Below, piece by piece: positions 3,368 to 64,000 of a stretch of 64,000 nucleotides of DNA; the stretch's first letter is position 1, and every line of letters starts with the position of its first letter. The translations under genes were made by a program, and so were the position numbers. The DNA comes from a plasmid, in assembly GCF_053078305.1 (NCBI RefSeq), contig NZ_CP166875.1. The stretch is one strand, 5' to 3'. The notes under the pieces were generated by a model, which was not told the origin of the DNA, searched no databases, and worked only from the letters and a program-made list of their open reading frames with translations.

Positions 3368-3501
3368 CAGGCCCTGAAGTTGTATATCAGCCGGCAATGC
3401 CGGCGGGCTTTCTGTATTCAAAATCTGCCTGTAAAACGAGTGCCCTGTGCGTGAAAAGGGATGGGCGGTAGCGTGTCAGAACATGTCGGGAGGAATATTC
3501 C

Positions 3502-4189: not shown

Positions 4190-4268
4190 AAATCTGCTGT
4201 GTTTTATAACCTCATAAGTTAACTGAAGGAGTATTCAGTGATTAATATTTCACTGGAGGTAATAAAGA

Positions 4269-4487: not shown

Positions 4488-4514
4488 GTGCTTACTGCTT
4501 CGAAGGAAAATGAA

Positions 4515-4862: not shown

Positions 4863-4992
4863 TTGTAATCCTGGTTTCCTGTTAAAAGCCTCCATCTCTT
4901 ATTTGTGCTGTGGTTTCAGAAATGGCACTGCGTGATATATCCACGCCACAGACTGATATTTTCCTTTTTTAAACGTACTAAGGAATACTCAT

Positions 4993-8635: not shown

Positions 8636-9624
8636 AACGGTGTATGTGGTTGTGTGTGGTTTTGCTGCTGACTGGCCATGTTCCCGCAGCCTCAGCGGAC
8701 GCTGCCTGTGAAGGGCGGTTTGTTAACCCGATCACGGATATCTGCTGGAACTGCATTTTTCCACTGTCGCTGGGCAGCACAAAAGTGAGTCAGGGGAAGG
8801 TGCCGGATACAATAAACCCGTCAATGCCGATCCAGTTCTGTCCTGCGCCACCGCCTGTATTTAAACGTATCGGGCTGGCTATTGGTTACTGGGAGCCGAT
8901 GGCACTGACGGATGTGACCCGCAGTCCGGGATGTATGGTAAATCTTGGAATAACAATCCCGGAGCTGGGGAAAACCGGGCAGGGAACGGCCAAAAAAGAC
9001 GACAAGCAGGTGAACGGGGCATTTTACCATGTTCACTGGTACAAATACCCGCTGACATACTGGCTGAGTATTATCACCTCAGCAGGATGTCTGATGGGCG
9101 GCGATATGGATATCGGGTACATCTCAGAAATTGACCCTACCTGGACAGACAGCAGTCTGACCACCATTCTCAACCCGGAAGCGGTCATCTTTGCAAATCC
9201 GATAGCACAGGGAGCCTGTGCGGTGGATGCCATTGCCAGTGCCTTTAACAAGCCGCTGGATATCCTGTTCTGGTGTGCCGGTTCGCAGGGCAGTATGTAT
9301 CCGTTTAATGGCTGGGTGAGCAATGAATCCAGTCCGTTGCAGTCATCCCTGCTGGTCAGTGAACGGATGGCGTTTAAGCTCCACCGTCAGGGAATGATAA
9401 TGAACAGCATCGGCGTGGATGTGGCTGTCTGTTATGAATATCCGTCGCCCATACTTCCCAAAGAGCGCTGGCGTTATCAGATGGTGAATATGTACCCGGA
9501 CAGCGGACAGTGCCATCCGTTCGGACGCAGTGTGATGCGCTGGGAGACGGGAAAAAATCCGCCCAACACAAAGAAAAACTTCGGTTACCTGATGTGGCGT
9601 AAACGTAACTGTGTGTTCCTGTAA
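8632..9624 (+). CDS. traU: TraU pilus assembly/DNA transfer protein
   Basis: 330 aa with signal peptide, Cys-rich, F gene order. Confidence 0.9.
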   Translation: MKRCMWLCVVLLLTGHVPAASADAACEGRFVNPITDICWNCIFPLSLGSTKVSQGKVPDTINPSMPIQFCPAPPPVFKRIGLAIGYWEPMALTDVTRSPGCMVNLGITIPELGKTGQGTAKKDDKQVNGAFYHVHWYKYPLTYWLSIITSAGCLMGGDMDIGYISEIDPTWTDSSLTTILNPEAVIFANPIAQGACAVDAIASAFNKPLDILFWCAGSQGSMYPFNGWVSNESSPLQSSLLVSERMAFKLHRQGMIMNSIGVDVAVCYEYPSPILPKERWRYQMVNMYPDSGQCHPFGRSVMRWETGKNPPNTKKNFGYLMWRKRNCVFL

Positions 9625-25131: not shown

Positions 25132-27330
25132 ATGAGTTTTAACGCAAAGGATATGACCCAGGGCGGTCAGATTGCGTCCATGCGTATCCGCATGTTCAGC
25201 CAGATCGCCAATATCATGCTTTACTGCCTGTTTATTTTTTTCTGGATCCTCGTTGGTCTGGTTTTATGGGTAAAAATAAGCTGGCAGACGTTTGTGAACG
25301 GCTGTATTTACTGGTGGTGCACCACGCTGGAAGGCATGCGGGATTTAATCAGGTCCCAGCCGGTCTATGAGATCCAGTATTACGGCAAAACCTTCCGGAT
25401 GAACGCGGCTCAGGTACTGCATGATAAATACATGATCTGGTGCGGTGAGCAGCTATGGTCTGCATTCGTTCTGGCGTCTGTCGTGGCCCTGGTTATCTGC
25501 CTGATCACCTTCTTTGTTGTCTCCTGGATTCTGGGGCGTCAGGGTAAACAGCAGAGTGAAAATGAAGTCACAGGTGGTCGTCAGCTGACTGACAATCCGA
25601 AAGAGGTTGCCAGGATGCTGAAAAAAGACGGCAAGGACTCCGATATCCGGATTGGCGATCTGCCGATTATCCGGGATTCTGAAATCCAGAATTTCTGTCT
25701 GCACGGCACGGTCGGGGCCGGTAAGTCGGAAGTTATCCGTCGTCTGGCCAACTACGCCCGTCAGCGCGGTGATATGGTGGTGATTTATGACCGATCAGGG
25801 GAATTTGTTAAAAGTTACTATGACCCGTCCATCGATAATATCCTGAATCCGCTGGATGCCCGCTGTGCCGCCTGGGATTTGTGGAAGGAGTGCCTGACAC
25901 AGCCGGATTTTGATAATACGGCAAATACCCTGATCCCGATGGGCACAAAAGAAGACCCGTTCTGGCAGGGCTCAGGACGCACCATTTTTGCGGAAGCGGC
26001 GTACCTGATGCGTAATGACCCCAACCGCAGCTACAGCAAACTGGTGGATACACTACTCTCCATCAAAATTGAAAAACTGCGTACCTTCCTGCGTAACTCA
26101 CCGGCGGCCAACCTGGTGGAAGAGAAAATCGAGAAAACGGCGATTTCCATCCGTGCTGTGCTGACCAACTACGTGAAAGCCATCCGTTACCTGCAGGGGA
26201 TTGAGCATAATGGTGAGTCCTTCACCATCCGTGACTGGATGCGGGGTGTCCGTGAAGATAAGAAAAACGGCTGGCTGTTTATTTCGTCGAATGCCGACAC
26301 CCATGCTTCCCTGAAACCGGTGATCTCCATGTGGCTGTCCATCGCCATTCGTGGCCTGATGGCGATGGGGGAGAACCGTAACCGTCGTGTGTGGTTCTTC
26401 TGTGATGAGTTACCCACGTTACACAAACTGCCGGACCTGGTGGAGATCCTGCCGGAAGCCCGTAAGTTCGGTGGCTGTTATGTGTTCGGTATCCAGTCCT
26501 ATGCCCAGCTGGAAGATATCTACGGTGAGAAATCGGCAGCCTCGCTGTTTGACGTCATGAACACCCGTGCCTTTTTCCGTTCCCCCAGCCATAAGATTGC
26601 AGAGTTCGCTGCCGGTGAAATTGGTGAGAAAGAGCACCTGAAAGCCAGCGAGCAGTATTCCTACGGTGCTGATCCGGTACGTGACGGGGTATCGACCGGT
26701 AAGGATATGGAGCGCCAGACGCTGGTCAGTTATTCCGACATTCAGTCTCTGCCGGATCTGACCTGTTATGTCACCCTGCCCGGACCGTATCCGGCAGTAA
26801 AACTCTCCCTGAAATATCAGGCACGACCGAAGGTTGCTCCGGAGTTTATTCCGCGTGACATCAATCCTGAAATGGAGAACCGTCTGAGTGCCGTACTTGC
26901 CGCAAGGGAAGCAGAAGGTCGTCAGATGGCCAGCCTCTTCGAACCGGATGTCCCGGAGGTTGTTTCCGGAGAAGACGTGACTCAGGCTGAACAGCCGCAA
27001 CAGCCGCAACAGCCGCAACAGCCGCAACAGCCGCAACAGCCGCAACAGCCGGTGTCTCCTGCCATCAACGATAAGAAGTCAGATGCAGGTGTGAATGTTC
27101 CGGCAGGGGGGATCGAGCAGGAGCTGAAAATGAAACCGGAAGAAGAGATGGAACAGCAACTGCCACCCGGGATCAGTGAATCCGGTGAAGTGGTGGATAT
27201 GGCCGTTTATGAGGCATGGCAACGGGAGCAGAATCCGGATATCCAGCAGCAGATGCAGCGCCGTGAAGAGGTGAATATCAACGTGCACCGGGAGCGCGGG
27301 GAGGATGTTGAGCCGGGAGATGATTTCTGA
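25132..27330 (+). CDS. traD: TraD type IV coupling protein
   Basis: 732 aa, Walker [10 protein letters not shown]-terminal QPQ repeats as in F TraD. Confidence 0.95.
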
Positions 27331-30300
27331 TGTTGAGTTTCAGCGTTGTTAAATCGGCAGGCAGTGCCGGAAACTATTACACCGACAAGGATAATTACTA
27401 TGTGCTGGGTAGCATGGGGGAACGCTGGGCGGGCAAGGGGGCTGAACAGCTTGGGCTGCAGGGCAGTGTTGATAAGGATGTCTTTACCCGTCTTCTGGAG
27501 GGGAAGCTGCCGGACGGGGCGGATTTAAGCCGTATGCAGGATGGCAGTAATAAGCATCGTCCCGGCTATGACCTGACCTTCTCCGCCCCCAAAAGTGTCT
27601 CCATGATGGCCATGTTAGGTGGCGATAAGCGCCTGATTGATGCACATAATCAGGCCGTGGATTTTGCTGTCCGTCAGGTGGAGGCGCTGGCTTCCACACG
27701 GGTGATGACGGACGGACAGTCAGAAACGGTACTGACCGGTAATCTGGTGATGGCACTCTTTAACCACGACACCAGTCGCGATCAGGACCCACAGTTACAC
27801 ACGCATGCGGTGGTGGCTAATGTCACGCAGCATAACGGCGAATGGAAGACACTGAGCAGTGATAAAGTGGGGAAAACCGGTTTTTCCGAGAACGTGCTCG
27901 CGAACCGTATTGCGTTCGGGAAAATATATCAGAGTGAGTTACGTCAGCGCGTTGAGGCGCTGGGCTATGAAACTGAAGTGGTGGGTAAGCACGGTATGTG
28001 GGAGATGCCGGGCGTACCGGTGGAGGCCTTTTCCGGACGCTCACAGGCTATCCGGGAGGCCGTCGGGGAAGACGCCTCGCTGAAATCCCGGGATGTGGCG
28101 GCACTGGATACGCGAAAATCCAAACAGCACGTCGATCCTGAAGTCAGAATGGCTGAATGGATGCAGACGCTGAAGGAAACCGGGTTCGACATCCGGGCGT
28201 ATCGTGACGCGGCAGACCAACGGGCGGAGACCCGCACGCAGACACCCGGACCCGCTTCACAGGACGGGCCGGATGTGCAGCAGGCGGTGACACAGGCCAT
28301 TGCCGGATTAAGTGAACGAAAAGTGCAGTTCACGTACACGGACGTGCTGGCCAGGACGGTCGGCATACTGCCGCCGGAAGCCGGTGTGATTGAGCGGGCG
28401 CGTGCCGGTATCGATGAGGCCATCAGCCGTGAGCAGCTTATCCCCCTCGACCGTGAGAAGGGGCTGTTCACGTCCGGGATTCATGTGCTCGATGAGCTGT
28501 CCGTCCGGGCACTCAGTCGTGACATCATGAAACAGAACCGGGTGACTGTACATCCGGAGAAAAGTGTTCCCCGGACGGCCGGTTACAGCGATGCGGTCAG
28601 TGTTCTGGCACAGGATCGCCCGTCGCTGGCCATTGTGTCCGGGCAGGGCGGTGCAGCCGGGCAGCGTGAGCGGGTGGCTGAACTGGTCATGATGGCCCGG
28701 GAGCAGGGGCGGGAGGTGCAGATTATTGCCGCTGACCGTCGCTCACAGATGAACCTGAAGCAGGATGAACGGCTGTCCGGTGAACTGATAACCGGACGTC
28801 GTCAGCTGCTGGAAGGCATGCCCTTCACGCCGGGCAGTACCGTTATCGTCGACCAGGGCGAAAAACTCTCCCTGAAAGAGACGTTAACCCTGCTGGACGG
28901 TGCCGCACGTCATAACGTACAGGTCCTGATAACCGACAGCGGGCAGCGAACCGGTACAGGCAGTGCGCTGATGGCCATGAAGGATGCCGGGGTGAACATA
29001 TATCGCTGGCAGGGGGGAGAGCAGCGACCGGCAACCATCATCTGTGAACCGGACCGTAATGTCCGCTATGCCCGGCTGGCCGGAGATTTTGCGGCCAGCG
29101 TGAAAGCCGGAGAAGAGAGCGTGGCACAGGTCAGCGGAGTACGGGAACAGGCCATACTGACACAGGCCATTCGCAGTGAACTGAAAACGCAGGGCGTACT
29201 CGGGCAGAGGGAGGTGACCATGACGGTGCTGTCACCGGTCTGGCTGGACAGCCGGAGTCGTTATCTGCGGGATATGTACCGCCCGGGGATGGTGATGGAG
29301 CAGTGGAACCCGGAGACACGCAGTCATGACCGCTATGTTATCGACCGGGTGACAGCGCAGAGTCACAGCCTGACCCTGCGGGATGCGCAGGGCGAAACGC
29401 AGGTGGTGCGTATATCCTCCCTGGACAGCAGCTGGTCGTTGTTCCGGCCGGAAAAAATACCGGTGGCAGACGGCGAGCGTCTGAGGGTGACAGGGAAAAT
29501 TCCCGGACTCCGCGTCTCCGGCGGTGACCGCCTGCAGGTGGCATCCGTCAGTGAAGATGCGATGACGGTTGTTGTGCCGGGGCGGGCTGAACCGGCCACC
29601 CTGCCTGTGAGCGATTCACCGTTCACGGCACTGAAGCTGGAGAGCGGCTGGGTGGAAACGCCCGGGCATTCCGTCAGTGACAGTGCGAAGGTTTTTGCCT
29701 CCGTCACACAGATGGCAATGGACAACGCCACCCTGAACGGTCTGGCCCGCAGCGGTCGTGATGTCCGGCTGTATTCCTCACTGGATGAAACCCGTACTGC
29801 GGAAAAACTTGCCCGTCACCCCTCCTTTACGGTGGTTTCTGAGCAGATAAAGGCGCGTGCCGGTGAGACATTGCTGGAAACCGCTATCAGTCTGCAGAAA
29901 GCCGGGCTTCACACGCCGGCACAGCAGGCCATTCATCTGGCCCTTCCTGTGCTGGAAAGTAAAAACCTGGCCTTCAGCATGGTGGACCTGCTGACAGAGG
30001 CGAAGTCGTTTGCTGCAGAAGGAACCAGTTTTACTGAACTGGGAGGGGAAATCAATGCGCAGATAAAACGCGGTGATTTGCTGTATGTGGATGTGGCAAA
30101 AGGCTATGGCACAGGCCTGCTGGTTTCCCGTGCGTCGTATGAGGCAGAAAAGAGCATTCTTCGCCATATTCTCGAAGGTAAGGAGGCGGTCACGCCGCTG
30201 ATGGAGAGGGTACCCGGCGAACTCATGGAGACACTGACGTCGGGGCAGCGTGCCGCCACCCGCATGATACTGGAAACGTCCGACCGTTTCACGGTGGTGC

Positions 30301-32600
30301 AGGGTTATGCCGGTGTGGGTAAGACCACACAGTTCCGGGCGGTGATGTCAGCCGTGAAGATGCTGCCGGAGAGTGAGCGTCCCCGTGTCGTGGGGCTGGG
30401 CCCCACGCACCGTGCGGTCGGTGAGATGCGCAGCGCCGGCGTGGATGCACAGACACTGGCATCCTTTCTGCATGACACGCAGCTGCAGCAGCGCAGCGGA
30501 GAAACGCCGGATTTCAGCAACACGCTGTTCCTGCTCGATGAGAGCTCTATGGTGGGCAATACCGACATGGCACGGGCATACGCCCTGATTGCGGCCGGTG
30601 GTGGTCGTGCCGTGGCCAGCGGTGACACGGACCAGCTGCAGGCTATCGCGCCCGGTCAGCCTTTCCGTCTCCAGCAGACGCGCAGTGCTGCCGATGTGGT
30701 CATCATGAAGGAGATTGTGCGTCAGACGCCGGAACTGCGGGAGGCGGTATACAGCCTGATTAACCGGGATGTGGAAAGGGCACTGTCCGGGCTTGAGAGT
30801 GTGAAACCGTCTCAGGTGCCACGTCAGGAGGGCGCATGGGCACCGGAGCACTCCGTGACGGAGTTCAGTCACAGCCAGGAAGCGAAACTGGCAGAAGCGC
30901 AGCAGAAGGCGATGCTGAAAGGCGAGGCTTTTCCGGATGTCCCCATGACACTGTATGAAGCCATTGTCCGCGACTATACCGGCAGAACACCGGAAGCACG
31001 GGAGCAGACGCTGATTGTCACGCACCTGAATGAGGACCGGCGCGTACTGAACAGCATGATTCATGATGTACGGGAAAAGGCCGGTGAGCTGGGGAAAGAG
31101 CAGGTCATGGTGCCTGTCCTGAACACAGCGAATATACGTGACGGAGAGCTGCGTCGTCTCTCCACCTGGGAGACACATCGGGACGCACTTGCCCTGGTGG
31201 ATAATGTGTATCACCGGATTGCCGGTATCAGTAAGGATGACGGGCTGATAACCCTGGAGGATGCGGAAGGTAACACGCGGCTGATTTCGCCCCGGGAGGC
31301 GGTGGCTGAAGGTGTCACACTGTACACCCCGGACACCATCCGGGTGGGGACCGGTGACCGGATGCGCTTCACGAAGAGTGACCGGGAGCGCGGCTATGTG
31401 GCCAACAGCGTCTGGACGGTGATGGCGGTTTCCGGTGACAGTGTCACGCTTTCTGACGGACAGCAGACCCGGGTGATTCGCCCCGGCCAGGAGCAGGCAG
31501 AGCAACATATTGACCTGGCCTATGCCATCACCGCTCACGGTGCGCAGGGGGCGAGTGAAACCTTTGCCATCGCGCTTGAAGGCACGGAAGGTAACCGGAA
31601 ACAGATGGCCGGCTTTGAGTCAGCCTATGTGGCCCTGTCGCGTATGAAGCAGCATGTGCAGGTGTACACCGATAACCGTCAGGGCTGGACGGATGCCATC
31701 AGCAAAGCCGTACAGAAAGGAACGGCCCATGATGTGCTGGAGCCGGGGGCTGACCGGGAGGTCATGAATGCAGAGCGGTTGTTCAGTACGGCACGGGAGC
31801 TGCGGGATGTGGCAGCTGGCCGTGCTGTTCTCCGCCAGGCGGGACTGGCCGGGGGCGACAGTCCGGCACGGTTTATTGCACCGGGGCGCAAATATCCGCA
31901 GCCGTATGTGGCCCTGCCGGCTTTTGACCGTAACGGCAAGTCCGCCGGTATCTGGCTGAACCCACTGACCACGGATGACGGAAACGGGCTGCGGGGATTC
32001 AGTGGTGAAGGCCGGGTGAAAGGCAGCGGGGATGCGCAGTTTGTGGCCCTGCAGGGCAGCCGTAACGGCGAGAGCCTGCTGGCTGATAATATGCAGGATG
32101 GTGTCTGGATTGCCCGTGATAACCCCGACAGCGGTGTGGTGGTGAGAATCGCCGGTGAAGGTCGTCCGTGGAATCCCGGTGCCATCACCGGTGGCCGCGT
32201 GTGGGGGGATATCCCGGACAACAGCGTCCAGCCGGGGGCCGGAAACGGTGAGCCGGTCACGGCAGAGGTGCTGGCACAGCGGCAGGCTGAAGAGGACATC
32301 CGTCGTGAAACGGAACGCCGTGCGGATGAGATTGTCAGAAAAATGGCAGAGGAAAAACCTGACCAGCCGGATGGTAAAACAGAGCAGGCTGTCAGGGCTA
32401 TTGCCGGGCAGGAGCAGGACAGGGCTTCGTCATCAGAACGGGAAACTGCGCTGCCGGAAAGTGTGCTGCGTGAGTCTCAACGGGTGCAGGACGCTGTCCG
32501 GGAGGTTGCCCGGGAAAATCTGCTGCAGGAGCGACTTCAGCAGATGGAGCGGGATATGGTCCGTGACCTGCAGAAAGAGAAAACCCTGGGCGGAGACTGA
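27330..32600 (+). CDS. traI: TraI relaxase/helicase
   Basis: 1756 aa (F TraI is 1756 aa); N-terminal relaxase with HTH motif region, helicase Walker A GYAGVGKT. Confidence 0.95.
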   Translation: MLSFSVVKSAGSAGNYYTDKDNYYVLGSMGERWAGKGAEQLGLQGSVDKDVFTRLLEGKLPDGADLSRMQDGSNKHRPGYDLTFSAPKSVSMMAMLGGDKRLIDAHNQAVDFAVRQVEALASTRVMTDGQSETVLTGNLVMALFNHDTSRDQDPQLHTHAVVANVTQHNGEWKTLSSDKVGKTGFSENVLANRIAFGKIYQSELRQRVEALGYETEVVGKHGMWEMPGVPVEAFSGRSQAIREAVGEDASLKSRDVAALDTRKSKQHVDPEVRMAEWMQTLKETGFDIRAYRDAADQRAETRTQTPGPASQDGPDVQQAVTQAIAGLSERKVQFTYTDVLARTVGILPPEAGVIERARAGIDEAISREQLIPLDREKGLFTSGIHVLDELSVRALSRDIMKQNRVTVHPEKSVPRTAGYSDAVSVLAQDRPSLAIVSGQGGAAGQRERVAELVMMAREQGREVQIIAADRRSQMNLKQDERLSGELITGRRQLLEGMPFTPGSTVIVDQGEKLSLKETLTLLDGAARHNVQVLITDSGQRTGTGSALMAMKDAGVNIYRWQGGEQRPATIICEPDRNVRYARLAGDFAASVKAGEESVAQVSGVREQAILTQAIRSELKTQGVLGQREVTMTVLSPVWLDSRSRYLRDMYRPGMVMEQWNPETRSHDRYVIDRVTAQSHSLTLRDAQGETQVVRISSLDSSWSLFRPEKIPVADGERLRVTGKIPGLRVSGGDRLQVASVSEDAMTVVVPGRAEPATLPVSDSPFTALKLESGWVETPGHSVSDSAKVFASVTQMAMDNATLNGLARSGRDVRLYSSLDETRTAEKLARHPSFTVVSEQIKARAGETLLETAISLQKAGLHTPAQQAIHLALPVLESKNLAFSMVDLLTEAKSFAAEGTSFTELGGEINAQIKRGDLLYVDVAKGYGTGLLVSRASYEAEKSILRHILEGKEAVTPLMERVPGELMETLTSGQRAATRMILETSDRFTVVQGYAGVGKTTQFRAVMSAVKMLPESERPRVVGLGPTHRAVGEMRSAGVDAQTLASFLHDTQLQQRSGETPDFSNTLFLLDESSMVGNTDMARAYALIAAGGGRAVASGDTDQLQAIAPGQPFRLQQTRSAADVVIMKEIVRQTPELREAVYSLINRDVERALSGLESVKPSQVPRQEGAWAPEHSVTEFSHSQEAKLAEAQQKAMLKGEAFPDVPMTLYEAIVRDYTGRTPEAREQTLIVTHLNEDRRVLNSMIHDVREKAGELGKEQVMVPVLNTANIRDGELRRLSTWETHRDALALVDNVYHRIAGISKDDGLITLEDAEGNTRLISPREAVAEGVTLYTPDTIRVGTGDRMRFTKSDRERGYVANSVWTVMAVSGDSVTLSDGQQTRVIRPGQEQAEQHIDLAYAITAHGAQGASETFAIALEGTEGNRKQMAGFESAYVALSRMKQHVQVYTDNRQGWTDAISKAVQKGTAHDVLEPGADREVMNAERLFSTARELRDVAAGRAVLRQAGLAGGDSPARFIAPGRKYPQPYVALPAFDRNGKSAGIWLNPLTTDDGNGLRGFSGEGRVKGSGDAQFVALQGSRNGESLLADNMQDGVWIARDNPDSGVVVRIAGEGRPWNPGAITGGRVWGDIPDNSVQPGAGNGEPVTAEVLAQRQAEEDIRRETERRADEIVRKMAEEKPDQPDGKTEQAVRAIAGQEQDRASSSERETALPESVLRESQRVQDAVREVARENLLQERLQQMERDMVRDLQKEKTLGGD

Positions 32601-33852: not shown

Positions 33853-34410
33853 ATGACAGAGCAGAAACGGCCAGTACTGACACTGAAACGAAGAACCGAC
33901 GTGGAAACACCGACCCGGAGCCGGAAAACCATCATCAATGTCACCACGCCACCAAAATGGAAGGTGAAAAAGCAGAAACTGGCGGAGAAGGCTGCCCGGG
34001 AAGCAGAGCTGGCGGCGAAGAAAGCACAGGCCAGACAGGCGCTGTCCATTTATCTGACGCTGCCCTCGCTGGATGAGGCGGTGAACACTCTGAAACCCTG
34101 GTGGCCGGGATTGTTTGACGGTAACACGCCCAGGCTTCTTGCCTGCGGTATCCGGGAGGTTTTACTGGATGAGGTGTCTCAGCGAAATATCCCGCTCTCT
34201 CATAAAAAACTCAGCCGGGCGCTGAAAGCCATCACCCGTTCGGAAAGTTATCTGTGCGCAATGAAAGCCGGCGCCTGCCGCTATGATACGGAAGGCTATG
34301 TGACAGAACATATCACACAGGAAGAAGAACAGTATGCGCAGGCGCGCCTGGAAAAGGTGCGCAGACAGAACCGGATCAAGGATGAGCTGCGGGCGATCCT
34401 GGCTGAATAA
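33853..34410 (+). CDS. finO: FinO RNA chaperone (fertility inhibition)
   Basis: 185 aa, basic N-terminus, matches remembered FinO. Confidence 0.9.
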
Positions 34411-37656: not shown

Positions 37657-37731
37657 ATGCCCGGAAAAGTTCAAGACTTCTTTCTGTGCTCGCTCCTTCT
37701 GCGCATTGTAAGTGCAGGATGGTGTGACTGA
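37657..37731 (+). CDS. tap: Tap (RepA6) leader peptide
   Basis: 24-codon [27 protein letters not shown] ending just after repA1 GTG start. Confidence 0.6.
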
Positions 37732-38581
37732 TCTTCAACAAACGTATTACCGCCAGGTAAAGAACCCGAATCCGGTGTTTACACCCCGTAAAGGTGCCGG
37801 AACGCTGAAGTTCTGCGAAAAACTGATGGAAAAGGCGGTGGGCTTCACCTCCCGTTTTGATTTCGCCATTCATGTGGCGCATGCCCGTTCGCGTGGTCTG
37901 CGTCGACGCATGCCACCGGTGCTGCGTCGACGGGCTATTGATGCGCTGCTGCAGGGGCTGTGTTTCCATTATGACCCGCTGGCCAACCGCGTCCAGTGTT
38001 CCATTACCACACTGGCCATTGAGTGCGGACTGGCGACAGAGTCCGGTGCAGGAAAACTCTCCATCACCCGGGCCACCCGGGCCCTGACGTTCCTGTCAGA
38101 GCTGGGACTGATTACCTACCAGACGGAATATGATCCGCTTATCGGGTGCTACATTCCGACCGATATCACGTTCACACCGGCGCTGTTTGCCGCCCTTGAT
38201 GTGTCTGAGGATGCAGTGGCAGCTGCGCGCCGCAGCCGTGTGGTATGGGAAAACAGACAGCGCAAAAAGCAGGGGCTGGATACCCTGGGTATGGATGAGC
38301 TGATAGCGAAAGCCTGGCGTTTTGTCCGTGAGCGTTTCCGCAGTTACCAGACAGAGCTTAAGTCCCACGGCATGAAACGTGCCCGTGCGCGCCGCGATGC
38401 AGGCAGAACCCGCCAGGACATTGTCACCCTGGTGAAACGGCAGCTGACGCGTGAAATCGCGGAAGGGCGTTTCCGGGGAAGCCTGGAGGCCGTGAAGCGC
38501 GAAATCGACCGTCGTGTGAAGGAACGCATGATAATGTCGCGTAACAACAACTACACACGGCTGGCCACTGCCTCCCCCTGA
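37724..38581 (+). CDS. repA1: RepA1 IncFII replication initiator (GTG start)
   Basis: [22 protein letters not shown]... near-identical to remembered R100 RepA1. Confidence 0.9.
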
Positions 38582-42890: not shown

Positions 42891-43472
42891 TTATTTATAA
42901 AACGTTGCAATTTTAGCATCATTTTTTATTGTTCTTTTTAACCTGAAGTACGTCGATCGAGAGATACCTGTTTTTTCTGTCACACTGCCCAGAGATTCTC
43001 CCTGTGATATAAGCTCCAACGCTGTAGGCGTTCGTGGATGCTTCTTCCTGCCAAATTTTACGCCTGCGGCAAGTGCCGCTATTCTTCCGTCGTTTGTCCG
43101 CTCCAGAATACGCTCACGTTCCGCTTCAGCTACAGCAGCAAGGATTTGGATAACCATTTTGCCCATTGTCCCTTCTGTACTGAGACCGTTCTCCAGGAAC
43201 CGGATGGCGATCCCCTTTTTGTAACAGCTATCAACCACACGAATCATGTCAGCAGTGTTACGCCCCAGTCGGTCCATTTTTGTACAGATGATTACGTCGT
43301 CTTTCTCTGCACGGGCCAACAACCGCTGTAGTCCTTCCCGTTCATCAGTTGCGCCAGTCATCATATCCGTAAAAATACGATCTTCCCGTACCCCGGCATT
43401 TTTTAGCTCCGAGATTTGATGTGTTAGCTTCTGATGACTGGTTGATACCCGTGCATACCCCAATAACGCCAT
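42891..43472 (-). CDS. tnpR: serine-recombinase resolvase TnpR
   Basis: MALLGYARVSTSHQ catalytic Ser motif, C-terminal HTH. Confidence 0.85.
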   Translation of the reverse strand: MALLGYARVSTSHQKLTHQISELKNAGVREDRIFTDMMTGATDEREGLQRLLARAEKDDVIICTKMDRLGRNTADMIRVVDSCYKKGIAIRFLENGLSTEGTMGKMVIQILAAVAEAERERILERTNDGRIAALAAGVKFGRKKHPRTPTALELISQGESLGSVTEKTGISRSTYFRLKRTIKNDAKIATFYK

Positions 43473-43484
43473 TTTTAGTCTCAC

Positions 43485-43628
43485 TTATCGTTTTTGACAC
43501 TGCATGGTATCATAATGTACAAAATACGATTTTTGAAACCTGCTTTTATGCTGTTTTAGACAGGTATCAGATATCTTAATATTTGATACTAGCCATATTT
43601 AACAAATATTTAGCATTTTGGTAAATGT
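43485..43628. promoter_or_regulatory. res site region between tnpR and tnpA
   Basis: divergent intergenic region with TGTC..GACA-type dyads. Confidence 0.5.
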
Positions 43629-46600
43629 ATGCAGAAGTACAAGAAAAGAATTAGTATATTAACAAAAAGTGAAATAAATGAATTATATCAAGTCCCCTCT
43701 TTTAATCCTGTTGAAAGGGATGAGTTTTTTTCGCTGGATATCAGCCTTAAAAGAGAAATTGATAAAATAATAAATATAGAAAGCAGGGTGTATCTGATAT
43801 TAATAACAGGGTATTTCAGATATAAACCTGTGATTCCTGAATTTACATTAAAAGACGTAAAAAGGGATGTGAAATATATTATCCAGACATATTATAAAAA
43901 CGAAAGTACTAATCTCAATTTAAACATACCTAAAAGTACAAAGTACCGCCTTGTTAAACGAATGCTTTCTACTCTAGGATTTGAACAACTCACCCCATCT
44001 ATAAAAAATGAGTTAAGTGAACGTCTGAATGATGTTGCTACTATATGTATGGAACCAAAATATATTTTTGATGAATTACTTGCTTTTTTAGGACAGCGGC
44101 GTATAGCTCTTCCTGGATACAGTACTGTCCAGAACCTCGTTTCAGATGCTTTAAACTTTGAAAGGAAAAGGACAATTAATATTTTGTCAAAGAGAATTTA
44201 TCCTGCCACTGCACAAAAGATTACATCCATCATCCATGATGATGGAATATTAAATTCCATCAGGGGATATAATTATAGCACGAGAGACTTCTCAGCATCA
44301 GAAATAGAAAATGAATTAAGAACTCACAATGTGATAAGTAGTATTTACTATGAAATAAAAGATATAATTAATTCATTAGGTATATCCCAGGGAAACATGG
44401 AGTACTATGCAACTATCGTAAAACACAGTACAACATTCAGACTTAAGCGACACCCTAAATGGCAAGGAATACTTTATTTGTGCTGCTACTTGTACTTCAG
44501 ATACAGAGAGATAAATGATAAAATAATCACAGCCTTCAGATATTTAGTAAAAAAACATAAAGACGCTTCAGTTTTGTTTGCAAAAGCTCGGGCAACAGAG
44601 GAAATAGATCTAATAAATAAAAAGCTTAAGTTTGCGAGTAAAATATTTAACTTCTTCGTTGATAGTAACATTGAAGACAGCATCCCTTTTGGATATGTTC
44701 GTGAAAAGGTTTTTTCACTTATATCGAAAGATGATATGCATCTTGTGAGTGAATTTTTTGACAAAAATAAAATCGATGTAATTGAATATCAATGGCAGTA
44801 TATTGACAGCCATCACCTTAAGATCGCCAATTCAATCCGAAAGCTTTTTCTGGCTATAGATATAGTATATGACAACGAGAAGTCTGTTATTGGCCAGCAA
44901 ATTACTGCTGCCAAGGATGATCTCAGAGGAAAAGGAAAGCTGGATGCTAAGGATCTGAGGGTAATTCATCCATCCGAGAAAAATTACATTGTAAAAGAAG
45001 GAGAAATTAACACTCAACGATTCGAATTTCATATGTACAGCAGGGTATCTAACCATCTGGAAAACGGTGTCTTTTATGCTGCGGAGAGTGAACAAAACAA
45101 GAGACTGGAAGATGATCTCATAGAACGAAGTTACTGGCATAAGAATAAATCGATTTTGATAGAGAAAACAGGCCTTGAACGACTTATCACACCAATAACG
45201 CAGACTCTTAATGAGCTGGAGAATACCTTTAGCGATAAACTGGCTCGTATAACCATTGGAATAAACTCAGATGCTAATGAGTTTGTGAAAAAACAACCAC
45301 ACTCCAACAGATTACAGTGGAGTCTGGCCAGTAAAAAATGGAAGACCAGCATCGATAATCCGATTTACAATCAGATAAAAAATATCGGAATAGTTGACGT
45401 AATGAAGTATGTAAACAATGAGACGAATTTTTTGTCTGTGTTTAATGCCATATCATCCAGGAAAAATAATCTTGAAGCTGACTATAATGACCTTCTTGCC
45501 TGTATATTTGGTAATGGCGCAAATTATGGTGTTCACAGAATGGCATCTGCATCAGACCGTAGTATTGGAATACTACGTGATGTGAATGACAAATTCATTC
45601 GTCCAGAAACAACAGGAATGGCCAACACAGTAATATCTGATGCAATTGCAAATCTTTCTGTATATAAATACTGGACGATAAATGAAGATTCTCCATTTGG
45701 AAGTGTTGATGGGCAGAAGCACACTTGCAGAATAAATACATTTAAAGCCCGTTATTCTGCCAAGTATTTCAGAAAGGGGAAAGGGGTTTCTGCGATGACA
45801 CTGGTATCTAATCATGTGCCATTATCAACTGTGGTAATTTCTCCAAATGAATATGAAGGTCATTTTGCATTTGACTTGTTATATAACAACACCAGTGAAA
45901 TACAACCAAAGTCATTAGCGACTGACAATCATGGTATAAACAACGTTAATTTTGCGATTCTTGACATTTTTGGCTATCAGTTTTCACCACGTTATGCAAA
46001 ATTCAAGAAAATATTTAATGAATTATTTGATGTTATACTGGAGAGTGATAAACTCATTATAAAACTTAAAAAACAATTTAACTTTAAGCTCATTGAACAT
46101 GAATGGGAAAACATCCAACATATTATTTGTTCTTTAAGCAGAAAAACAACCATTCAAAGTACGGTTGTTAAGAAGTTATCTAATACAAAGCGTAGCAACA
46201 AGACATTAGCAGCACTTCGGGAGTATGACCGAGTTATAAAATGCATATATGTCCTGGATTATGCTGACAATAAAACCTTAAGGCAATTTGTGCAACAAGC
46301 ACTGAACAGAGGTGAAGCTTATCATCAACTAAGAAGAGCAATAGCATCAGTAAATGGAAATCAATTTCGCGGTGGTAATGACTACCAAATAGATCAATGG
46401 AACGACTGTGCGAGGTTAATAGCTAATTGTGTAATCTATTATAATTCAGCAATATTATCCAGGCTGGTCGAGAAATTTGAAAAAGAAAATAATAAAAAAG
46501 CGATAGATGTTCTGGCTAACTTATCCCCAGTAGCATGGAGACACATTCTCCTTGGAGGGAATTATTCTTTTGAAGATCAAGTTGCGATCACAAATTTGGA

Positions 46601-46667
46601 CAGTCTTTTGGAGGGAGTAGACCCACTAAGTGATATCGGAGATATTGAGTCCGAATATGACGGTTAA
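43629..46667 (+). CDS. tnpA: Tn3-family transposase TnpA
   Basis: 1012 aa, AT-rich, typical size for the family. Confidence 0.9.
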   Translation: MQKYKKRISILTKSEINELYQVPSFNPVERDEFFSLDISLKREIDKIINIESRVYLILITGYFRYKPVIPEFTLKDVKRDVKYIIQTYYKNESTNLNLNIPKSTKYRLVKRMLSTLGFEQLTPSIKNELSERLNDVATICMEPKYIFDELLAFLGQRRIALPGYSTVQNLVSDALNFERKRTINILSKRIYPATAQKITSIIHDDGILNSIRGYNYSTRDFSASEIENELRTHNVISSIYYEIKDIINSLGISQGNMEYYATIVKHSTTFRLKRHPKWQGILYLCCYLYFRYREINDKIITAFRYLVKKHKDASVLFAKARATEEIDLINKKLKFASKIFNFFVDSNIEDSIPFGYVREKVFSLISKDDMHLVSEFFDKNKIDVIEYQWQYIDSHHLKIANSIRKLFLAIDIVYDNEKSVIGQQITAAKDDLRGKGKLDAKDLRVIHPSEKNYIVKEGEINTQRFEFHMYSRVSNHLENGVFYAAESEQNKRLEDDLIERSYWHKNKSILIEKTGLERLITPITQTLNELENTFSDKLARITIGINSDANEFVKKQPHSNRLQWSLASKKWKTSIDNPIYNQIKNIGIVDVMKYVNNETNFLSVFNAISSRKNNLEADYNDLLACIFGNGANYGVHRMASASDRSIGILRDVNDKFIRPETTGMANTVISDAIANLSVYKYWTINEDSPFGSVDGQKHTCRINTFKARYSAKYFRKGKGVSAMTLVSNHVPLSTVVISPNEYEGHFAFDLLYNNTSEIQPKSLATDNHGINNVNFAILDIFGYQFSPRYAKFKKIFNELFDVILESDKLIIKLKKQFNFKLIEHEWENIQHIICSLSRKTTIQSTVVKKLSNTKRSNKTLAALREYDRVIKCIYVLDYADNKTLRQFVQQALNRGEAYHQLRRAIASVNGNQFRGGNDYQIDQWNDCARLIANCVIYYNSAILSRLVEKFEKENNKKAIDVLANLSPVAWRHILLGGNYSFEDQVAITNLDSLLEGVDPLSDIGDIESEYDG

Positions 46668-59738: not shown

Positions 59739-60172
59739 GTACCGTTTATCACCGTCCGGCTGACCCTTCAGGCGATGACAGTTACGTGCGACCGTTGTTT
59801 GCCGATCGTTGCCAGGCCGGTTTTCCTTCGCCTGCCACTGATTATGCTGAGCAGGAACTGGATCTGAACAGCTATTGCATCAGCAGACCTGCAGCCACCT
59901 TCTTTCTGCGCGCCAGCGGTGAATCGATGAACCAGGCTGGCGTGCAGAATGGTGATCTGCTGGTAGTGGACAGGGGCGAAAAACCACAACACGGGGACAT
60001 CGTTATCGCTGAGATCGACGGTGAGTTCACCGTCAAACGACTGCTGTTGCGCCCACGCCCGGCACTGGAGCCGGTTTCAGACAGCCCGGAATTCCGCACA
60101 CTGTATCCGGAAAACATCTGTATTTTTGGTGTTGTCACTCACGTGATACACAGGACGCGGGAGTTACGCTGA
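59735..60172 (+). CDS. impA: ImpA/UmuD-like self-cleaving mutagenesis protein
   Basis: 145 aa, LexA-like S24 peptidase motif GESM...K. Confidence 0.85.
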   Translation: MSTVYHRPADPSGDDSYVRPLFADRCQAGFPSPATDYAEQELDLNSYCISRPAATFFLRASGESMNQAGVQNGDLLVVDRGEKPQHGDIVIAEIDGEFTVKRLLLRPRPALEPVSDSPEFRTLYPENICIFGVVTHVIHRTRELR

Positions 60173-61446
60173 TGTTTGCACTGGCTGATATCAACAGTTT
60201 CTACGCCTCATGTGAAAAAGTTTTCCGCCCGGACCTTCGCAACGAACCGGTCATCGTACTCAGCAATAACGATGGCTGTGTGATCGCGCGCAGCCCGGAG
60301 GCAAAAGCCCTTGGCATCAGAATGGGGCAGCCCTTGTTTCAGGTGAGACAAATGCGCCTGGAGAAGAAAATACATGTATTTTCCAGCAATTATGCGCTGT
60401 ACCACAGCATGAGCCAACGGGTCATGGCTGTTCTGGAGTCGCTTTCTCCCGCAGTTGAGCCCTACTCAATTGATGAAATGTTTATTGATTTGCGGGGGAT
60501 AAATCATTGCATCTCTCCGGAGTTTTTTGGTCATCAGCTCAGGGAACAGGTAAAGAGCTGGACAGGACTCACCATGGGGGTGGGCATTGCGCCTACAAAA
60601 ACGCTGGCTAAAAGTGCACAGTGGGCAACAAAGCAATGGCCACAGTTTTCCGGTGTGGTCGCGCTGACGGCAGAAAACCGTAATCGGATCTTGAAGCTAC
60701 TGGGACTGCAGCCAGTTGGTGAGGTCTGGGGAGTAGGACACAGACTGACGGAAAAGCTGAATGCGCTGGGTATTAACACAGCACTGCAGCTGGCGCAGGC
60801 TAACACGGCATTCATCCGGAAAAACTTCAGCGTCATTCTTGAGCGTACGGTACGCGAACTCAACGGCGAGTCCTGCATATCCCTGGAAGAAGCACCACCG
60901 GCAAAACAGCAGATTGTCTGTAGTCGCAGTTTTGGTGAACGAATCACAGACAAAGATGCCATGCACCAGGCTGTTGTTCAGTATGCAGAGCGGGCCGCAG
61001 AGAAACTACGTGGGGAGCGTCAGTATTGCCGGCAGGTGACGACATTTGTACGGACATCCCCCTTTGCAGTAAAAGAACCCTGTTACAGCAATGCCGCTGT
61101 GGAAAAGCTTCCATTGCCCACACAGGACAGCCGGGACATTATTGCCGCCGCATGCAGAGCCTTAAACCATGTCTGGCGTGAAGGGTACCGCTATATGAAG
61201 GCAGGAGTCATGCTGGCTGATTTCACACCATCGGGTATAGCGCAGCCGGGATTATTTGATGAAATCCAGCCCCGTAAAAACAGTGAAAAGTTAATGAAAA
61301 CACTCGATGAACTGAACCAGTCGGGAAAAGGGAAAGTGTGGTTTGCGGGGCGAGGAACCGCCCCTGAATGGCAAATGAAACGGGAAATGTTGAGTCAGTG
61401 TTATACAACTAAATGGCGAGATATTCCCCTGGCCAGGCTGGGTTAG
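60172..61446 (+). CDS. impB: ImpB/UmuC-like Y-family DNA polymerase
   Basis: 424 aa, MFALADINSFYASCE N-terminus typical of UmuC. Confidence 0.85.
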   Translation: MFALADINSFYASCEKVFRPDLRNEPVIVLSNNDGCVIARSPEAKALGIRMGQPLFQVRQMRLEKKIHVFSSNYALYHSMSQRVMAVLESLSPAVEPYSIDEMFIDLRGINHCISPEFFGHQLREQVKSWTGLTMGVGIAPTKTLAKSAQWATKQWPQFSGVVALTAENRNRILKLLGLQPVGEVWGVGHRLTEKLNALGINTALQLAQANTAFIRKNFSVILERTVRELNGESCISLEEAPPAKQQIVCSRSFGERITDKDAMHQAVVQYAERAAEKLRGERQYCRQVTTFVRTSPFAVKEPCYSNAAVEKLPLPTQDSRDIIAAACRALNHVWREGYRYMKAGVMLADFTPSGIAQPGLFDEIQPRKNSEKLMKTLDELNQSGKGKVWFAGRGTAPEWQMKREMLSQCYTTKWRDIPLARLG

Positions 61447-61447
61447 T

Positions 61448-61864
61448 TCAGTCATCTCCGAACATATTTTCAGCGTTTCTTCTGGTCTGGTCTTCACCGT
61501 CATTTCTCGACAGACTCTGCTCTGTAAGAGGAGTACTGCAATCCACAGACGTATGGAGACCAGATTGTTTTTCCAGTAATTCAAGCAATTTCTTTTCAAC
61601 CGAAAAAGCACCTGGTATCACGCTGGAAATCACCTTATTAATATCATCCAGAGTCGTATTTTCTGTCAGTAACTCCGATATCAGCAAAGGAAGACGTTTA
61701 TCTATAGCTGCAAACGCCGCACCAGTAACTAACATCGCGCGCATGAAACGTCCCCGCTCCTTCAGTTTTTCATTTGCAATGAGCTCATCTGCTATCTTAT
61801 CTCCTGTCCGTTCATCCGGGAAAAGTTCAAATGAGCAGCGTCTGGATTTATTTTCATCACTCAT
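61448..61864 (-). CDS. parR: ParR/StbB centromere-binding adaptor
   Basis: 138 aa downstream of parM, similar to R1 ParR. Confidence 0.7.
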   Translation of the reverse strand: MSDENKSRRCSFELFPDERTGDKIADELIANEKLKERGRFMRAMLVTGAAFAAIDKRLPLLISELLTENTTLDDINKVISSVIPGAFSVEKKLLELLEKQSGLHTSVDCSTPLTEQSLSRNDGEDQTRRNAENMFGDD

Positions 61865-62837
61865 TAGTCACACCACCTTTCATTTTTATCATTCCCATGA
61901 CTAAATCAAACTGCGGGGATGAGCTCAGATAAAAGCGCTCATCAGGAACCTTAGTCAGGTTCTTCACAGCCTCGGCCACAATTTCAGCCCCACCACCAAC
62001 ACACATTACATGTGTATAGTCGGTGAAACGGCTGATGACATCATTAACTCGTTTAATAAGCAACTTCTGCCGTTCATTGATAACATTAATGATAGACTCA
62101 CGCTGTTCAGCATTATAAATGCGACGGGAAAGGTAGTCAGGTTCATTACGGTGCACAATGATATTGTCAGCCTGGAATGAGCTCACTCTTGTATTAGCAT
62201 GTACAGCCATCTGTTCCTTAACCCCGGATGTAATCAGGGACACGCCGATATTCGGATCACACCAGGTTTTTGTAATCCCTGTCATTTTGCTACGAACATG
62301 CGACACATCAAGAGTTGTACCACCGAGATCTACGATCAAAAGGGATTCATCATCCTCAAGCCCCGCAAGAACACTGAAACCAGCGGGAATACTTTCAGGA
62401 AGAACGGAAACACTGCGAATAACAAATGCATCACTCCCCTGCACCCGTACTTCACGCATCACATTTTTTTTCTTTCTTTCAATGTTTTGCTTATTTTTCT
62501 GATTGTTGGCGTCAAGGTATTCAGAGATCGGCAATGTGACGATGACATCAACAGGCTGCGCTTTCAGGCCGGTCTGCTGTAGCGCATGCTGAATGGCCAC
62601 AACATTCACATCACTGTACTGATAGCGTGTTTCAGTCGTTACGACAGCATCAGCACTTAATGGATCAAATGAAAACTTCTCGCCGTCGATCTCGTAATTA
62701 GCCGGGGCAGCATCATCCAGTAAACTAAAAGACCATTCCGGTTTAAAGCTGTTAGGGCTGATTAACGTTTTCACGTCACCATCCTCCAACCAGGCAAGTT
62801 TAATGTTGGTAGAACCATCATCAATAAAGATTTTCAT
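61857..62837 (-). CDS. parM: ParM/StbA actin-like segregation ATPase
   Basis: MKIFIDDGSTNIKLAW... clear similarity to R1 ParM. Confidence 0.85.
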   Translation of the reverse strand: MKIFIDDGSTNIKLAWLEDGDVKTLISPNSFKPEWSFSLLDDAAPANYEIDGEKFSFDPLSADAVVTTETRYQYSDVNVVAIQHALQQTGLKAQPVDVIVTLPISEYLDANNQKNKQNIERKKKNVMREVRVQGSDAFVIRSVSVLPESIPAGFSVLAGLEDDESLLIVDLGGTTLDVSHVRSKMTGITKTWCDPNIGVSLITSGVKEQMAVHANTRVSSFQADNIIVHRNEPDYLSRRIYNAEQRESIINVINERQKLLIKRVNDVISRFTDYTHVMCVGGGAEIVAEAVKNLTKVPDERFYLSSSPQFDLVMGMIKMKGGVTNE

Positions 62838-63100
62838 AACCAGTCTCCGTTGCTCATAAACAAATAGAAAAAACAAACATGCTTCATACATGCAATGTAT
62901 ATTTAATTATAATGAAAAAATGGTCTTTCTGAAAGGAGAAATACAACATAAAAACACGATAAATTGCATGTGCATTGTACACACAACTTTAAGACCAGAG
63001 GAAATCATAGATACAAAAACATTATGAAGGTTATATGTAATACATAAATGCAATATAAAAACATCTTTGACATCATGGTTCAGGTTAAGGGAAAAGGAAT
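62838..63100. promoter_or_regulatory. candidate parC-like centromere/promoter region
   Basis: AT-rich region upstream of parM with reiterated ATGCAAT/ACATGC motifs. Confidence 0.35.
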
Positions 63101-63250
63101 GACATGGTGAAACTGAGAGGAAAGGAAAGCGGTGACGAATCATGTCACCATAAACAGAAAGATGTCTAATGGGGACTCTTTAGGTACGTGAAGAATCCCC
63201 ATAACGCATTTAAAAGACACACATCAGATACCCTTAAGGTATCCGATAGT

Positions 63251-63559
63251 TTATTGACCTATTGCACCATCACGTTCAAGCTTCTCTCTTATAGCCTCAA
63301 TAATATATGAGCTAAAATCCAGAGATGTTTTACTGGTCGCTTTAAGTTCCGCATGAGCTTCAAAATACGACAGCGGTATGGCCTTAAGATTCTTAGCCTT
63401 CGTCCTGGCAGCCACGGGACGACCTGAAACTTCCTCTGCACCTTCATTTGGCTGAGACGGGGCTGTTGCTGTTACGGCAGAAGAAGAAGTTTGTAATCTG
63501 GCAGAATCCACCAGGTTTTTCAGTTTTTCAGCCTGTGCACTAAATTTCGCTTTGCTCAT
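63251..63559 (-). CDS. candidate ribbon-helix-helix partition protein (ParG-like)
   Basis: 102 aa, C-terminal pattern consistent with RHH fold; inference only. Confidence 0.35.
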   Translation of the reverse strand: MSKAKFSAQAEKLKNLVDSARLQTSSSAVTATAPSQPNEGAEEVSGRPVAARTKAKNLKAIPLSYFEAHAELKATSKTSLDFSSYIIEAIREKLERDGAIGQ

Positions 63560-63645
63560 GAGATAACCAAGGATGTTTGTTAGATACTTAAAAGATATCC
63601 ATTAAAAGCCCAAAGGATACTATATGGATACCCAATAGATACACC

Positions 63646-64000
63646 TTACTGTTTGTTATTTTCAATCAGATGATTGATTTCTTCGATCAGGGCAATAACT
63701 TCCTTACCTCCTGCCGAATAGCGCCCATGAACAGACTCAGTGATTCCCATCCCAGTCTCAATGACATCCTCAAATTCTGCACGAGCAGAAATGCGGCTCT
63801 TCATCAGTTTCAGATGTTTGAACGATGGCAGGATTGCATCAAGCTTAGGGAATTTCTTCTTGTTAGGATTAACTTTACAGAGATACAGGTGAGCAGTTAT
63901 ATCGGTCCCCATGATAGAGCTGATTTCGTCCAGTACTCCATCAAAATGCATCAAACCAATACGTTCAGTCAGGGAGTCTTTTGAAGGGACAATAACGCAG
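63646..64000 (-). CDS. candidate ParA-type ATPase, C-terminal part (N-terminus outside window)
   Basis: C-terminal sequence pattern resembles ParA/ParF; open to window edge. Confidence 0.35.
   Translation of the reverse strand, partial: CVIVPSKDSLTERIGLMHFDGVLDEISSIMGTDITAHLYLCKVNPNKKKFPKLDAILPSFKHLKLMKSRISARAEFEDVIETGMGITESVHGRYSAGGKEVIALIEEINHLIENNKQ

Follow-up and report, generated by a model that had tools for sequence, protein, structure and literature searches.

Does this plasmid carry one partition system or two and, if two, what brought them side by side? The question is raised by positions 61448–64000 of a 64,000-nucleotide stretch of plasmid DNA that we analysed as a whole (the window; contig NZ_CP166875.1 of NCBI RefSeq assembly GCF_053078305.1), where the parM and parR genes of an actin-type system lie next to a gene for a small protein, yegA, and the 3′ part of yefA, a gene for a ParA-type ATPase. 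We consider it quite likely that the window ends in a double partition module of the type found in plasmid R64, that is, in two independent segregation machines arranged head to tail on the minus strand. What carries this reading are the identities of the genes, a Walker A motif in the completed ATPase, a predicted ribbon-helix-helix (RHH) fold in YegA, the enrichment and conservation of repeated sites around yegA, purifying selection and the co-occurrence of the two loci across plasmids.

Gene layout of the partition block

All par genes of the analysed region, window positions 61448–64000, are read on the minus strand. The features that the argument draws on are the following:

61448–61864, minus strand: parR (stbB), 138 amino acids; predicted centromere-binding adaptor of the type II system (Pfam Plasmid_stab_B, PDB 2jd3).
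61857–62837, minus strand: parM (stbA), 326 amino acids starting MKIFIDDGS; actin-like partition ATPase (Pfam, PDB).
62906–62933, minus strand: promoter-like site of parMR, TTCAGA and TATAAT with a 16-nt spacer, 10 of 12 positions matching; called from the consensus only.
62939–63063, minus strand: candidate parC, an 18-nt direct repeat pair with a partial third copy, from a repeat search.
62888–62900 and 62959–62971, strandless: inverted repeat of 13 nt, 92% complementary, bracketing the promoter-like site.
63130–63150, minus strand: weak terminator-like hairpin between the operons, a 7-bp stem TGGTGACATGATTCGTCACCG and then CTTTCCTTTC; from a consensus scan only.
63160–63250, strandless: downstream array of YegA-type sites, from matches to a position weight matrix (PWM), with an inverted repeat; found at the same position in the related loci L004, L006 and L008.
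63251–63559, minus strand: yegA, 102 amino acids; predicted to bind the centromere in the type Ib system.
63560–63645, strandless: intergenic array between parA and yegA, approximately eight units at 10–12-bp spacing, from PWM matches and inspection.
63646–64000, minus strand: 3′ part of yefA (parA), the last 117 codons and a partial codon of a 214-amino-acid type Ib ParA ATPase.

In the direction of transcription, the 3′ part of yefA/parA (64000→63646) comes first and is followed by yegA, parM and parR. An initial annotation of the window had the ParMR system followed by the other two genes, which reverses the order in which they are transcribed; its observation that a type II and a type I locus lie side by side stands, although with parA completed the coding parts of both systems span approximately 2.85 kb in total and not 2.5 kb. 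The spacer between parA and yegA is 86 bp long and that between yegA and parM 413 bp, the latter being A+T-rich (33.9% G+C), and the stop of the convergent gene impB (60172–61446) is two bases from the end of parR. The window does not reach the 5′ 290 nt of parA, nor a further array of sites upstream of the gene in which a TTGACA hexamer is conserved. In R64-style names the block reads resD-yefA-yegA-parA-parB, where parA and parB are the ParM and ParR genes; here, we use parA for yefA. In one record, plasmid pCH49 (L009; LC567087, positions 3001–5843), the depositor's product names are crossed between the two systems: 'type II bacterial partitioning protein' is given for the ParA-like yefA, and 'type I plasmid partitioning protein' for ParM and ParR.

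The ParA-type ATPase

The 117 residues of the ParA-type protein that fall within the window gave no Pfam match, and the call was thus not verifiable from the window alone. A megablast search finds the 3-kb stretch at 99.6–99.7% identity in many plasmids, among them pSLy4 (L001), which has 9 mismatches in 3001 nt (99.7% identical) and from which the gene could be completed. The complete gene (L001 8647–9291) encodes 214 amino acids with a C-terminus identical to that in the window, in agreement with the earlier recognition of a ParA-type C-terminus on the same strand as parMR. The N-terminus of the full protein, MPVIANTHPKGGVGKTTSS, contains a deviant Walker A box, KGGVGKTT, at residues 10–17; the motif whose lack would have spoken against a second partition locus is present in the completed reading frame of pSLy4.

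The full protein matches Pfam AAA_31 (9.5e-9) and MipZ (5.7e-6), and it aligns end to end with the NCBIfam model NF041546, ParA_partition (E 1.6e-14, model positions 1–202 of 203). Its relatives in the PDB are weak, consisting of Soj and of ParF (4dzz), which covers residues 1–106. Its length of 214 amino acids, the deviant form of its Walker A box and the lack of a DNA-binding domain at the N-terminus give the protein the build of a type Ib ParA. Given the end-to-end alignment, a score below the curated cut-off of the model and the weak structural relatives, we read YefA as a divergent member of the small (type Ib) ParA proteins.

The small protein YegA and its predicted fold

YegA consists of a conserved N-terminal helix (approximately residues 4–20), a variable disordered linker and a C-terminal domain (approximately residues 53–98) that is predicted to adopt an RHH fold. 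The same division is seen among close homologues, in which residues 1–25 are conserved, the linker varies and the C-terminal 50 residues are nearly invariant. Neither single-sequence nor profile searches (two alignments) gave a significant match for YegA in Pfam, NCBIfam or PDB sequences; the only hits were sub-threshold ones to Pfam DUF3950, at E 0.09 for YegA itself and among 10 of 54 relatives, with 0.0088 as the best value. A profile search of the whole library yielded 60 representative relatives, most of them 70–100 amino acids long and aligned over the C-terminal domain.

The AlphaFold monomer model of full YegA was poor, with a predicted local distance difference test score (pLDDT) of 65; it consists of the N-terminal helix, the disordered linker, and an extended segment with two helices, and a Foldseek search with it against the PDB gave no match. 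We then modelled a pseudo-dimer in which two C-terminal domains were joined by a Gly/Ser linker, using an alignment of 51 sequences. Both halves of this model are strand-helix-helix with pLDDT >90, and its predicted template modelling score (pTM) is 0.77. The RHH fold of the C-terminal domain is supported as a prediction by this linked pseudo-dimer, and the RHH call of the initial annotation holds at this structural level, while the sequence families of Pfam, NCBIfam and the PDB give it no backing. As in type Ib systems, the predicted RHH-fold protein is encoded directly downstream of parA. In many NCBI/GenBank records YegA goes by the name 'molecular chaperone GroEL', and in RefSeq by 'hypothetical protein'; since it has no similarity to GroEL, the former name is a propagated misannotation.

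Centromere-like arrays of the type Ib locus

Inspection of the spacers revealed GGATATC, GGTATCC and GGATACC motifs recurring at 10–12-bp intervals (~11 bp) at three locations, namely between parA and yegA, just downstream of yegA and, beyond the end of the window, upstream of parA. The intergenic array (63560–63645) is made of units such as GGGTATCCATA, GGATATCTTTT and GGTTATCTC, and the downstream array has strong sites, GGATACCTTAA and GGGTATCTGAT, at 63223–63247 and degenerate units down to ~63160. The related loci of Pectobacterium, Salmonella and Cedecea (L004, L006 and L008), whose YegA proteins are 60–77% identical to this one, carry more closely packed arrays at all three of these locations; pooled over the four loci, GATATCC was observed 19 times against 0.86 expected from the window composition. 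A PWM trained on the three other loci only (consensus GGATATCCATT) was scanned across the 64-kb window, and at a strict threshold 9 of its 18 matches fall within the 211 bp flanking yegA, where 0.06 would be expected. The motif is near-palindromic, and the nine matches thus correspond to about five sites. A second cluster of matches, at 9001–9500 of the window, lies inside a tra-region open reading frame (ORF; 8632–9624), has no 11-bp phasing and was judged to be chance.

The arrangement reaches beyond these close relatives. In four of four remote ones, with 37–51% identity to YegA, the small gene directly follows a gene for a ParA of 211–220 amino acids, and two of the four (L016 and L020) have 11-bp arrays with a GATATC core upstream of parA and between the genes. 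All four enterobacterial loci have, by eye, a TTGACA or TTGACT hexamer in the middle of the upstream array; a consensus promoter scan called no yefA promoter there. Short-repeat arrays adjoin the operon as they do in type Ib systems and, judged by their motif and placement, have the standard type Ib operator-centromere anatomy; the less usual feature is the conserved array between the two genes. The candidate type Ib centromere is likely to lie in the arrays flanking yegA and parA and not in the region upstream of parM, where the initial annotation had placed a possible centromere; the signal at that place is weak, and the clearer arrays of the type Ib locus had been missed.

Between L004 and L006, nonsynonymous (dN) and synonymous (dS) divergence are 0.06 and 0.60 for ParA and 0.12 and 0.88 for YegA; synonymous sites are saturated, and the dN/dS of ParA is ~0.1 where it can be estimated. 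Purifying selection on both genes, yefA and yegA, is strong. This bears on the possibility that the block contains only one working partition machine, with ParA/YegA acting as a regulator or persisting as a decaying remnant, or with parMR being redundant. In favour of such a view, the RHH proteins of type Ib systems are also repressors, and Ebersbach and Gerdes reportedly found in 2001 that the two loci of pB171 contribute unequally; furthermore, a single par deletion in pESBL hardly lowered stability, as other functions compensate (PMC7602700). A decaying or redundant locus fits poorly with both pairs being intact in more than 1,000 plasmids and with the strong selection on yefA and yegA at saturated synonymous sites, and an operator alone would not call for arrays whose conservation extends well past the promoter, even to the region downstream of yegA. 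We therefore hold a single working machine to be unlikely.

The ParMR system and its candidate centromere

In the type II system, ParM matches the Pfam families StbA_N (5.1e-82) and ParM C-terminal domain (2.5e-72) and, among PDB sequences, the ParM of R1 (1mwk/4a62) at ~1e-104 over its full length (residues 1–317). ParR matches Pfam Plasmid_stab_B (7.6e-28) and PDB entry 2jd3, the ParR of pB171 ('StbB protein'), at 2e-6 over residues 1–83. The actin-fold ATPase and the small adaptor encoded directly downstream of it, with an 8-nt overlap between the parM stop and the parR start, are the two proteins of a type II (ParMRC) system, and the Pfam and PDB matches of both bear out the ParMR assignment made initially. 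Related records annotate the parM product as 'plasmid segregation protein ParM'. The mechanical parM ORF extends to 62891 (MYEACLFF...), 54 nt upstream of 62837, the equivalent of the RefSeq start. Residue 1 of R1 ParM aligns with the start at 62837 (MKIFIDDGS), which is preceded by a GGAG at a distance of 9 nt; this suggests that the extension at 62838–62891 is probably untranslated.

The centromere of this system, parC, is less distinct. On the minus strand, two 18-nt direct repeats, TGTTTTTATATTGCATTT (63046–63063) and TGTTTTTATGTTGTATTT (62939–62956), match at 16 of 18 positions and lie 107 bp apart, with a partial third copy at 63011–63022; the proximal copy abuts the −35 hexamer of the promoter-like site. 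Under a Markov null, the longest 2-mismatch repeat upstream of parM has p ~0.015, uncorrected, and as a control, the experimentally defined parC1 region of pB171, with its two ParR repeats, gave p 0.01 in the same test. The signal of the candidate parC is weak: it has the size expected for this ParR type and does not amount to proof. Reiterated short motifs upstream of parM had been reported initially, and what holds of this is the single 18-nt pair; the best 9–12-mers occur in 4–6 copies, a number at chance under a first-order Markov null (p 0.4–0.76). Promoter-like sites upstream of parM do not exceed shuffles in number, and the 13-nt inverted repeat spanning 62888–62971 is a possible operator, inverted repeats of that size being no more frequent than chance in the region. 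The upstream regions of diverged ParMR neighbours have different repeats, as expected for other ParR specificities.

The position of the downstream YegA-type array, between yegA and parM, raises the question of whether the two loci form an integrated unit, in which YegA bound at 63160–63250, or read-through from yegA, controls the expression of parMR. There is a precedent in pB171, where ParB of par2 controls par1 through the shared parC1. The loci studied here follow each other in one direction, with ~230 bp from the last YegA site to the parM promoter-like site downstream and nothing stronger than weak terminator-like hairpins between the loci, and a neighbouring ParMR pair is retained even when the ParMR cassette is a different one. 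On the other hand, the YegA sites do not directly overlap the promoter-like site, and in L006 and L008 umuDC genes in the opposite orientation separate the loci by ~2.2 kb, so contiguity is not required. We regard such an integrated unit as somewhat unlikely.

How the two machines would work

For two independent machines, the functions can be proposed by analogy with ParFG of TP228, pB171 and R1: YegA would bind DNA and stimulate the ATPase, the repeats would act as centromeres and each locus would contribute to stability. In the type Ib locus, YegA dimers would coat the arrays, creating a partition complex and autoregulating the operon, and the conserved N-terminal tail of YegA would stimulate ParA-ATP dimers on the nucleoid to hydrolyse their ATP; a diffusion-ratchet would then distribute the plasmids at intervals along the nucleoid, as with ParF/ParG of TP228 and par2 of pB171. 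In the type II locus, ParR would bind the parC region at the parM promoter and cap ParM-ATP filaments, whose growth would push sister plasmids apart, as in R1 and par1 of pB171.

Several observations count against this picture of two complete systems. By sequence, YegA is linked neither to ParG nor to any RHH family, and its RHH model depends on an artificial linked dimer. The Walker A and Walker B motifs of ParA lie outside the window and were taken from a near-identical plasmid and not from the source molecule; with 53.9 bits against the curated cut-off of 180 bits, ParA also falls outside the NF041546 equivalog. The parC of the ParMR system is weakly marked. Finally, no functional study of yefA/yegA and no experiment on their proteins was found in the searchable literature, where a name search gave unrelated genes of the same names.

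Distribution and history of the block

Full-length matches to parMR are found in 1,081 PLSDB records, to parA and yegA together in 1,109, and to the combined, near-identical stretch in ~1,075. R64 has an identical layout, with resD, ParA (under the same protein accession as in pSLy4), the 102-amino-acid gene, ParM, ParR and the convergent impB. Both par loci have a G+C content of 43–45%, against 52–57% in the flanks. In the relatives from Pectobacterium, Salmonella and Cedecea, with ParA 80–89% identical, a ParMR pair lies nearby on the same strand, and the order is resD, sometimes a Rep3-type gene, parA, yegA and the ParMR pair. Identity among these relatives is 84–88% for the integrase, 80–89% for ParA and 60–77% for YegA but only 39–51% for ParM and 23–35% for ParR, and the ParMR partner appears to have been swapped.

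Do these differences betray the fusion of two plasmids? The initial annotation had suggested a cointegrate history, in which the par loci would come from two fused plasmids, each with a system of its own. The discordance, with ParA and YegA far closer among relatives than ParM and ParR, does rule out a single history of the two loci, and the host plasmid is itself a mosaic, composed of F-type tra genes, an IncFII repA, a Tn3-family element and a leading and stability block. However, the pair is a fixed block in ~1,075 plasmids, including the prototype R64, its two loci are equal in G+C, and nothing resembling a fusion joint is seen: no insertion sequence, transposon end or second replicon lies between them, the 413-bp spacer consisting only of sites, hairpin and promoter. 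The combination of a type Ib and a type II locus recurs beside resD in diverged lineages, which fits local exchange of cassettes, and pB171-type plasmids repeat the layout with unrelated type Ib proteins and a resD that is 97% identical. The discordant divergence of ParA and ParM thus points to cassette exchange at a resD-linked site and not to a two-plasmid fusion, and we consider a cointegrate origin very unlikely.

The best reading of the comparisons, in our view, is that par cassettes accumulate and are exchanged at a maintenance site linked to resD, a recurrent outcome of which would be the pair of type Ib and type II loci. One may go further and imagine the pairing as a selected, recurrent design of enterobacterial low-copy plasmids, in which resD-yefA-yegA recruits ParMR cassettes, the YegA array couples the two machines and YegA represents a widespread unnamed RHH family with a GATATC-core site; taken as a whole, this larger proposal strikes us as rather doubtful.

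Comparison with known systems

Of the known systems, pB171 with its double par locus comes closest: par1 (parMRC, type II) and par2 (parABC, type Ib) lie next to each other as the two types do here. Double par loci are established through this plasmid (cited in PMC7602700), and its type Ib locus is described in the same source as having repeat arrays on both sides of the operon. Our comparison was made with a pB171-type plasmid found via the 2jd3 sequence. It shares with the present block the adjoining resD-type tyrosine recombinase, 97% identical to the one here, and its ParMR pair is a recognisable relative, with ParM 37% identical and ParR detectable through 2jd3 (2e-6). The type Ib proteins, in contrast, are not orthologous, the ParA proteins being 19% identical and the small DNA-binding proteins giving no alignment. 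The layouts differ as well: in pB171 the type Ib operon is divergent from parMR with a shared intergenic region (parC1), whereas here both operons run in one direction, 413 bp apart, and the additional array between parA and the small gene is found only here.

With ParF/ParG/parH of TP228 the type Ib locus shares a ParA of approximately 206–214 amino acids with a deviant Walker A box, a small protein with a flexible N-terminal tail and a C-terminal RHH dimer (predicted for YegA), and short repeated sites as operator and centromere (candidates here). It differs in that YegA has no detectable similarity to ParG, is longer and has a variable linker of ~25 residues, and in the sites themselves: parH of TP228 uses ACTC tetramer repeats, whereas the core here is GGATATC-like with ~11-bp spacing. 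The type II locus resembles ParMRC of R1 and StbAB of R100 in the order of parM and parR, their overlapping stop and start, and the A+T-rich upstream region with a promoter-like site. The parC of R1 has ten 11-bp iterons, whereas one 18-nt repeat pair and a partial copy are detectable here, and the ParR is closer to the pB171 type. A site between the ATPase gene and the RHH gene is also known from pSM19035, where the sites serve as centromere and operators. The RHH protein of its delta/omega system binds short repeats before several promoters (PMC3074150). The system is a Gram-positive one, its repeats are contiguous 7-bp heptads, and the likeness noted here is one of design.

Among IncI1 plasmids, pESBL carries the parABS locus of Daniel et al. 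2020, a type Ib system with a 208-amino-acid ParA and a 100-amino-acid ParB without recognisable motifs (PMC7602700). Its repeats lie upstream and downstream, and stabilisation of a mini-F and binding to the repeats have been shown experimentally (PMC7602700). Like ours, it is a type Ib locus that adjoins impB within a backbone of the I-complex, and we considered whether the two might be the same. This was rejected: the ParA proteins are 24% identical, the repeats of pESBL are contiguous TTGTTATC octamers that are absent here, and pESBL has no parMR at the site. With neither homologous ParA/ParB proteins nor arrays of GATAACAA octamers, the present locus is a different system from parABS of pESBL. 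In a survey of I-complex plasmids (PMC10286972), 'parAB of R64' counts as a single system, found in 48% of the plasmids; the adjacent pair goes unmentioned, and parAB of R64 is described as identical to the par locus of pESBL. The records disagree with this: that of R64 has ParM/ParR and YefA/YegA, and that of pESBL a different type Ib pair beside impB.

Surroundings of the block and the host plasmid

The neighbourhood of the par loci varies among plasmids. In the Pectobacterium and Salmonella loci (L004 3870–4733 and L006 3867–4730), a Rep3-type replication gene lies between resD and parA, divergent from parA, and carries iteron-like repeats (TTATGAAAGTGACCGC and similar), the type Ib locus being attached directly to the replicon. 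The umuDC/impAB genes are found between the par loci, in the opposite orientation, in L006 (6576–8275) and L008 (6605–8306), and beyond parR, convergent, in R64 and in the window; L004 keeps only a fragment of them between the loci, and L005 a DUF4113 remnant. The polymerase V genes, to judge from this varied placement, move around within the block.

Part of the block also occurs on its own. The 163 bp at the 3′ end of parR (61448–61610) are found unannotated, at 98.8% identity, in ~1,000 other plasmids, most of them IncF. In pAR-0401-2, the piece borders an IS1 copy beside sitABC, with a RepFIB-type rep gene and an integrase ~1.7 kb away. It looks like a scar of this par block; the remnant was looked for in pESBL and not found there.

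The host plasmid is a mosaic and not a plain IncI1 plasmid. An F-type tra operon occupies 1–33 kb, with traD at 25132–27330, traI at 27330–32600 and finO at 33853–34410, and an IncFII repA is at 37712–38581. A Tn3-family resolvase and transposase (42891–46667) are followed by psiA, a ParB-like gene, ssb, DUF1281, impCAB and the par block; the leading region (psiA, the ParB-like gene and ssb) is separated from any origin of transfer (oriT). No record colinear with the window was found in PLSDB or among the E. coli RefSeq sequences. Plasmid pFHI_NMBU_11_02 matches only in the tra half, has a different ParMR and lacks yefA/yegA.

Implications

Overall, the two par loci are genuine, but for the most part they are an ordinary component of a very common type of plasmid backbone. 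They do not constitute a new kind of system, both double par loci and RHH-type Ib systems being well established, and the new element is limited to an uncharacterised member of type Ib, for which an RHH protein family and a motif for its sites are newly inferred. The backbone is of practical weight, since much of the carriage of extended-spectrum beta-lactamase (ESBL) and AmpC genes falls to R64-type plasmids and related ones, which rely on maintenance modules such as this one to persist. That the commonest maintenance block of the I-complex carries two partition systems of different types is worth recognising: with both systems and a likely centromere motif in view, the annotation can be corrected and partition-mediated incompatibility becomes easier to predict, and experiments are given concrete sites and residues to start from.

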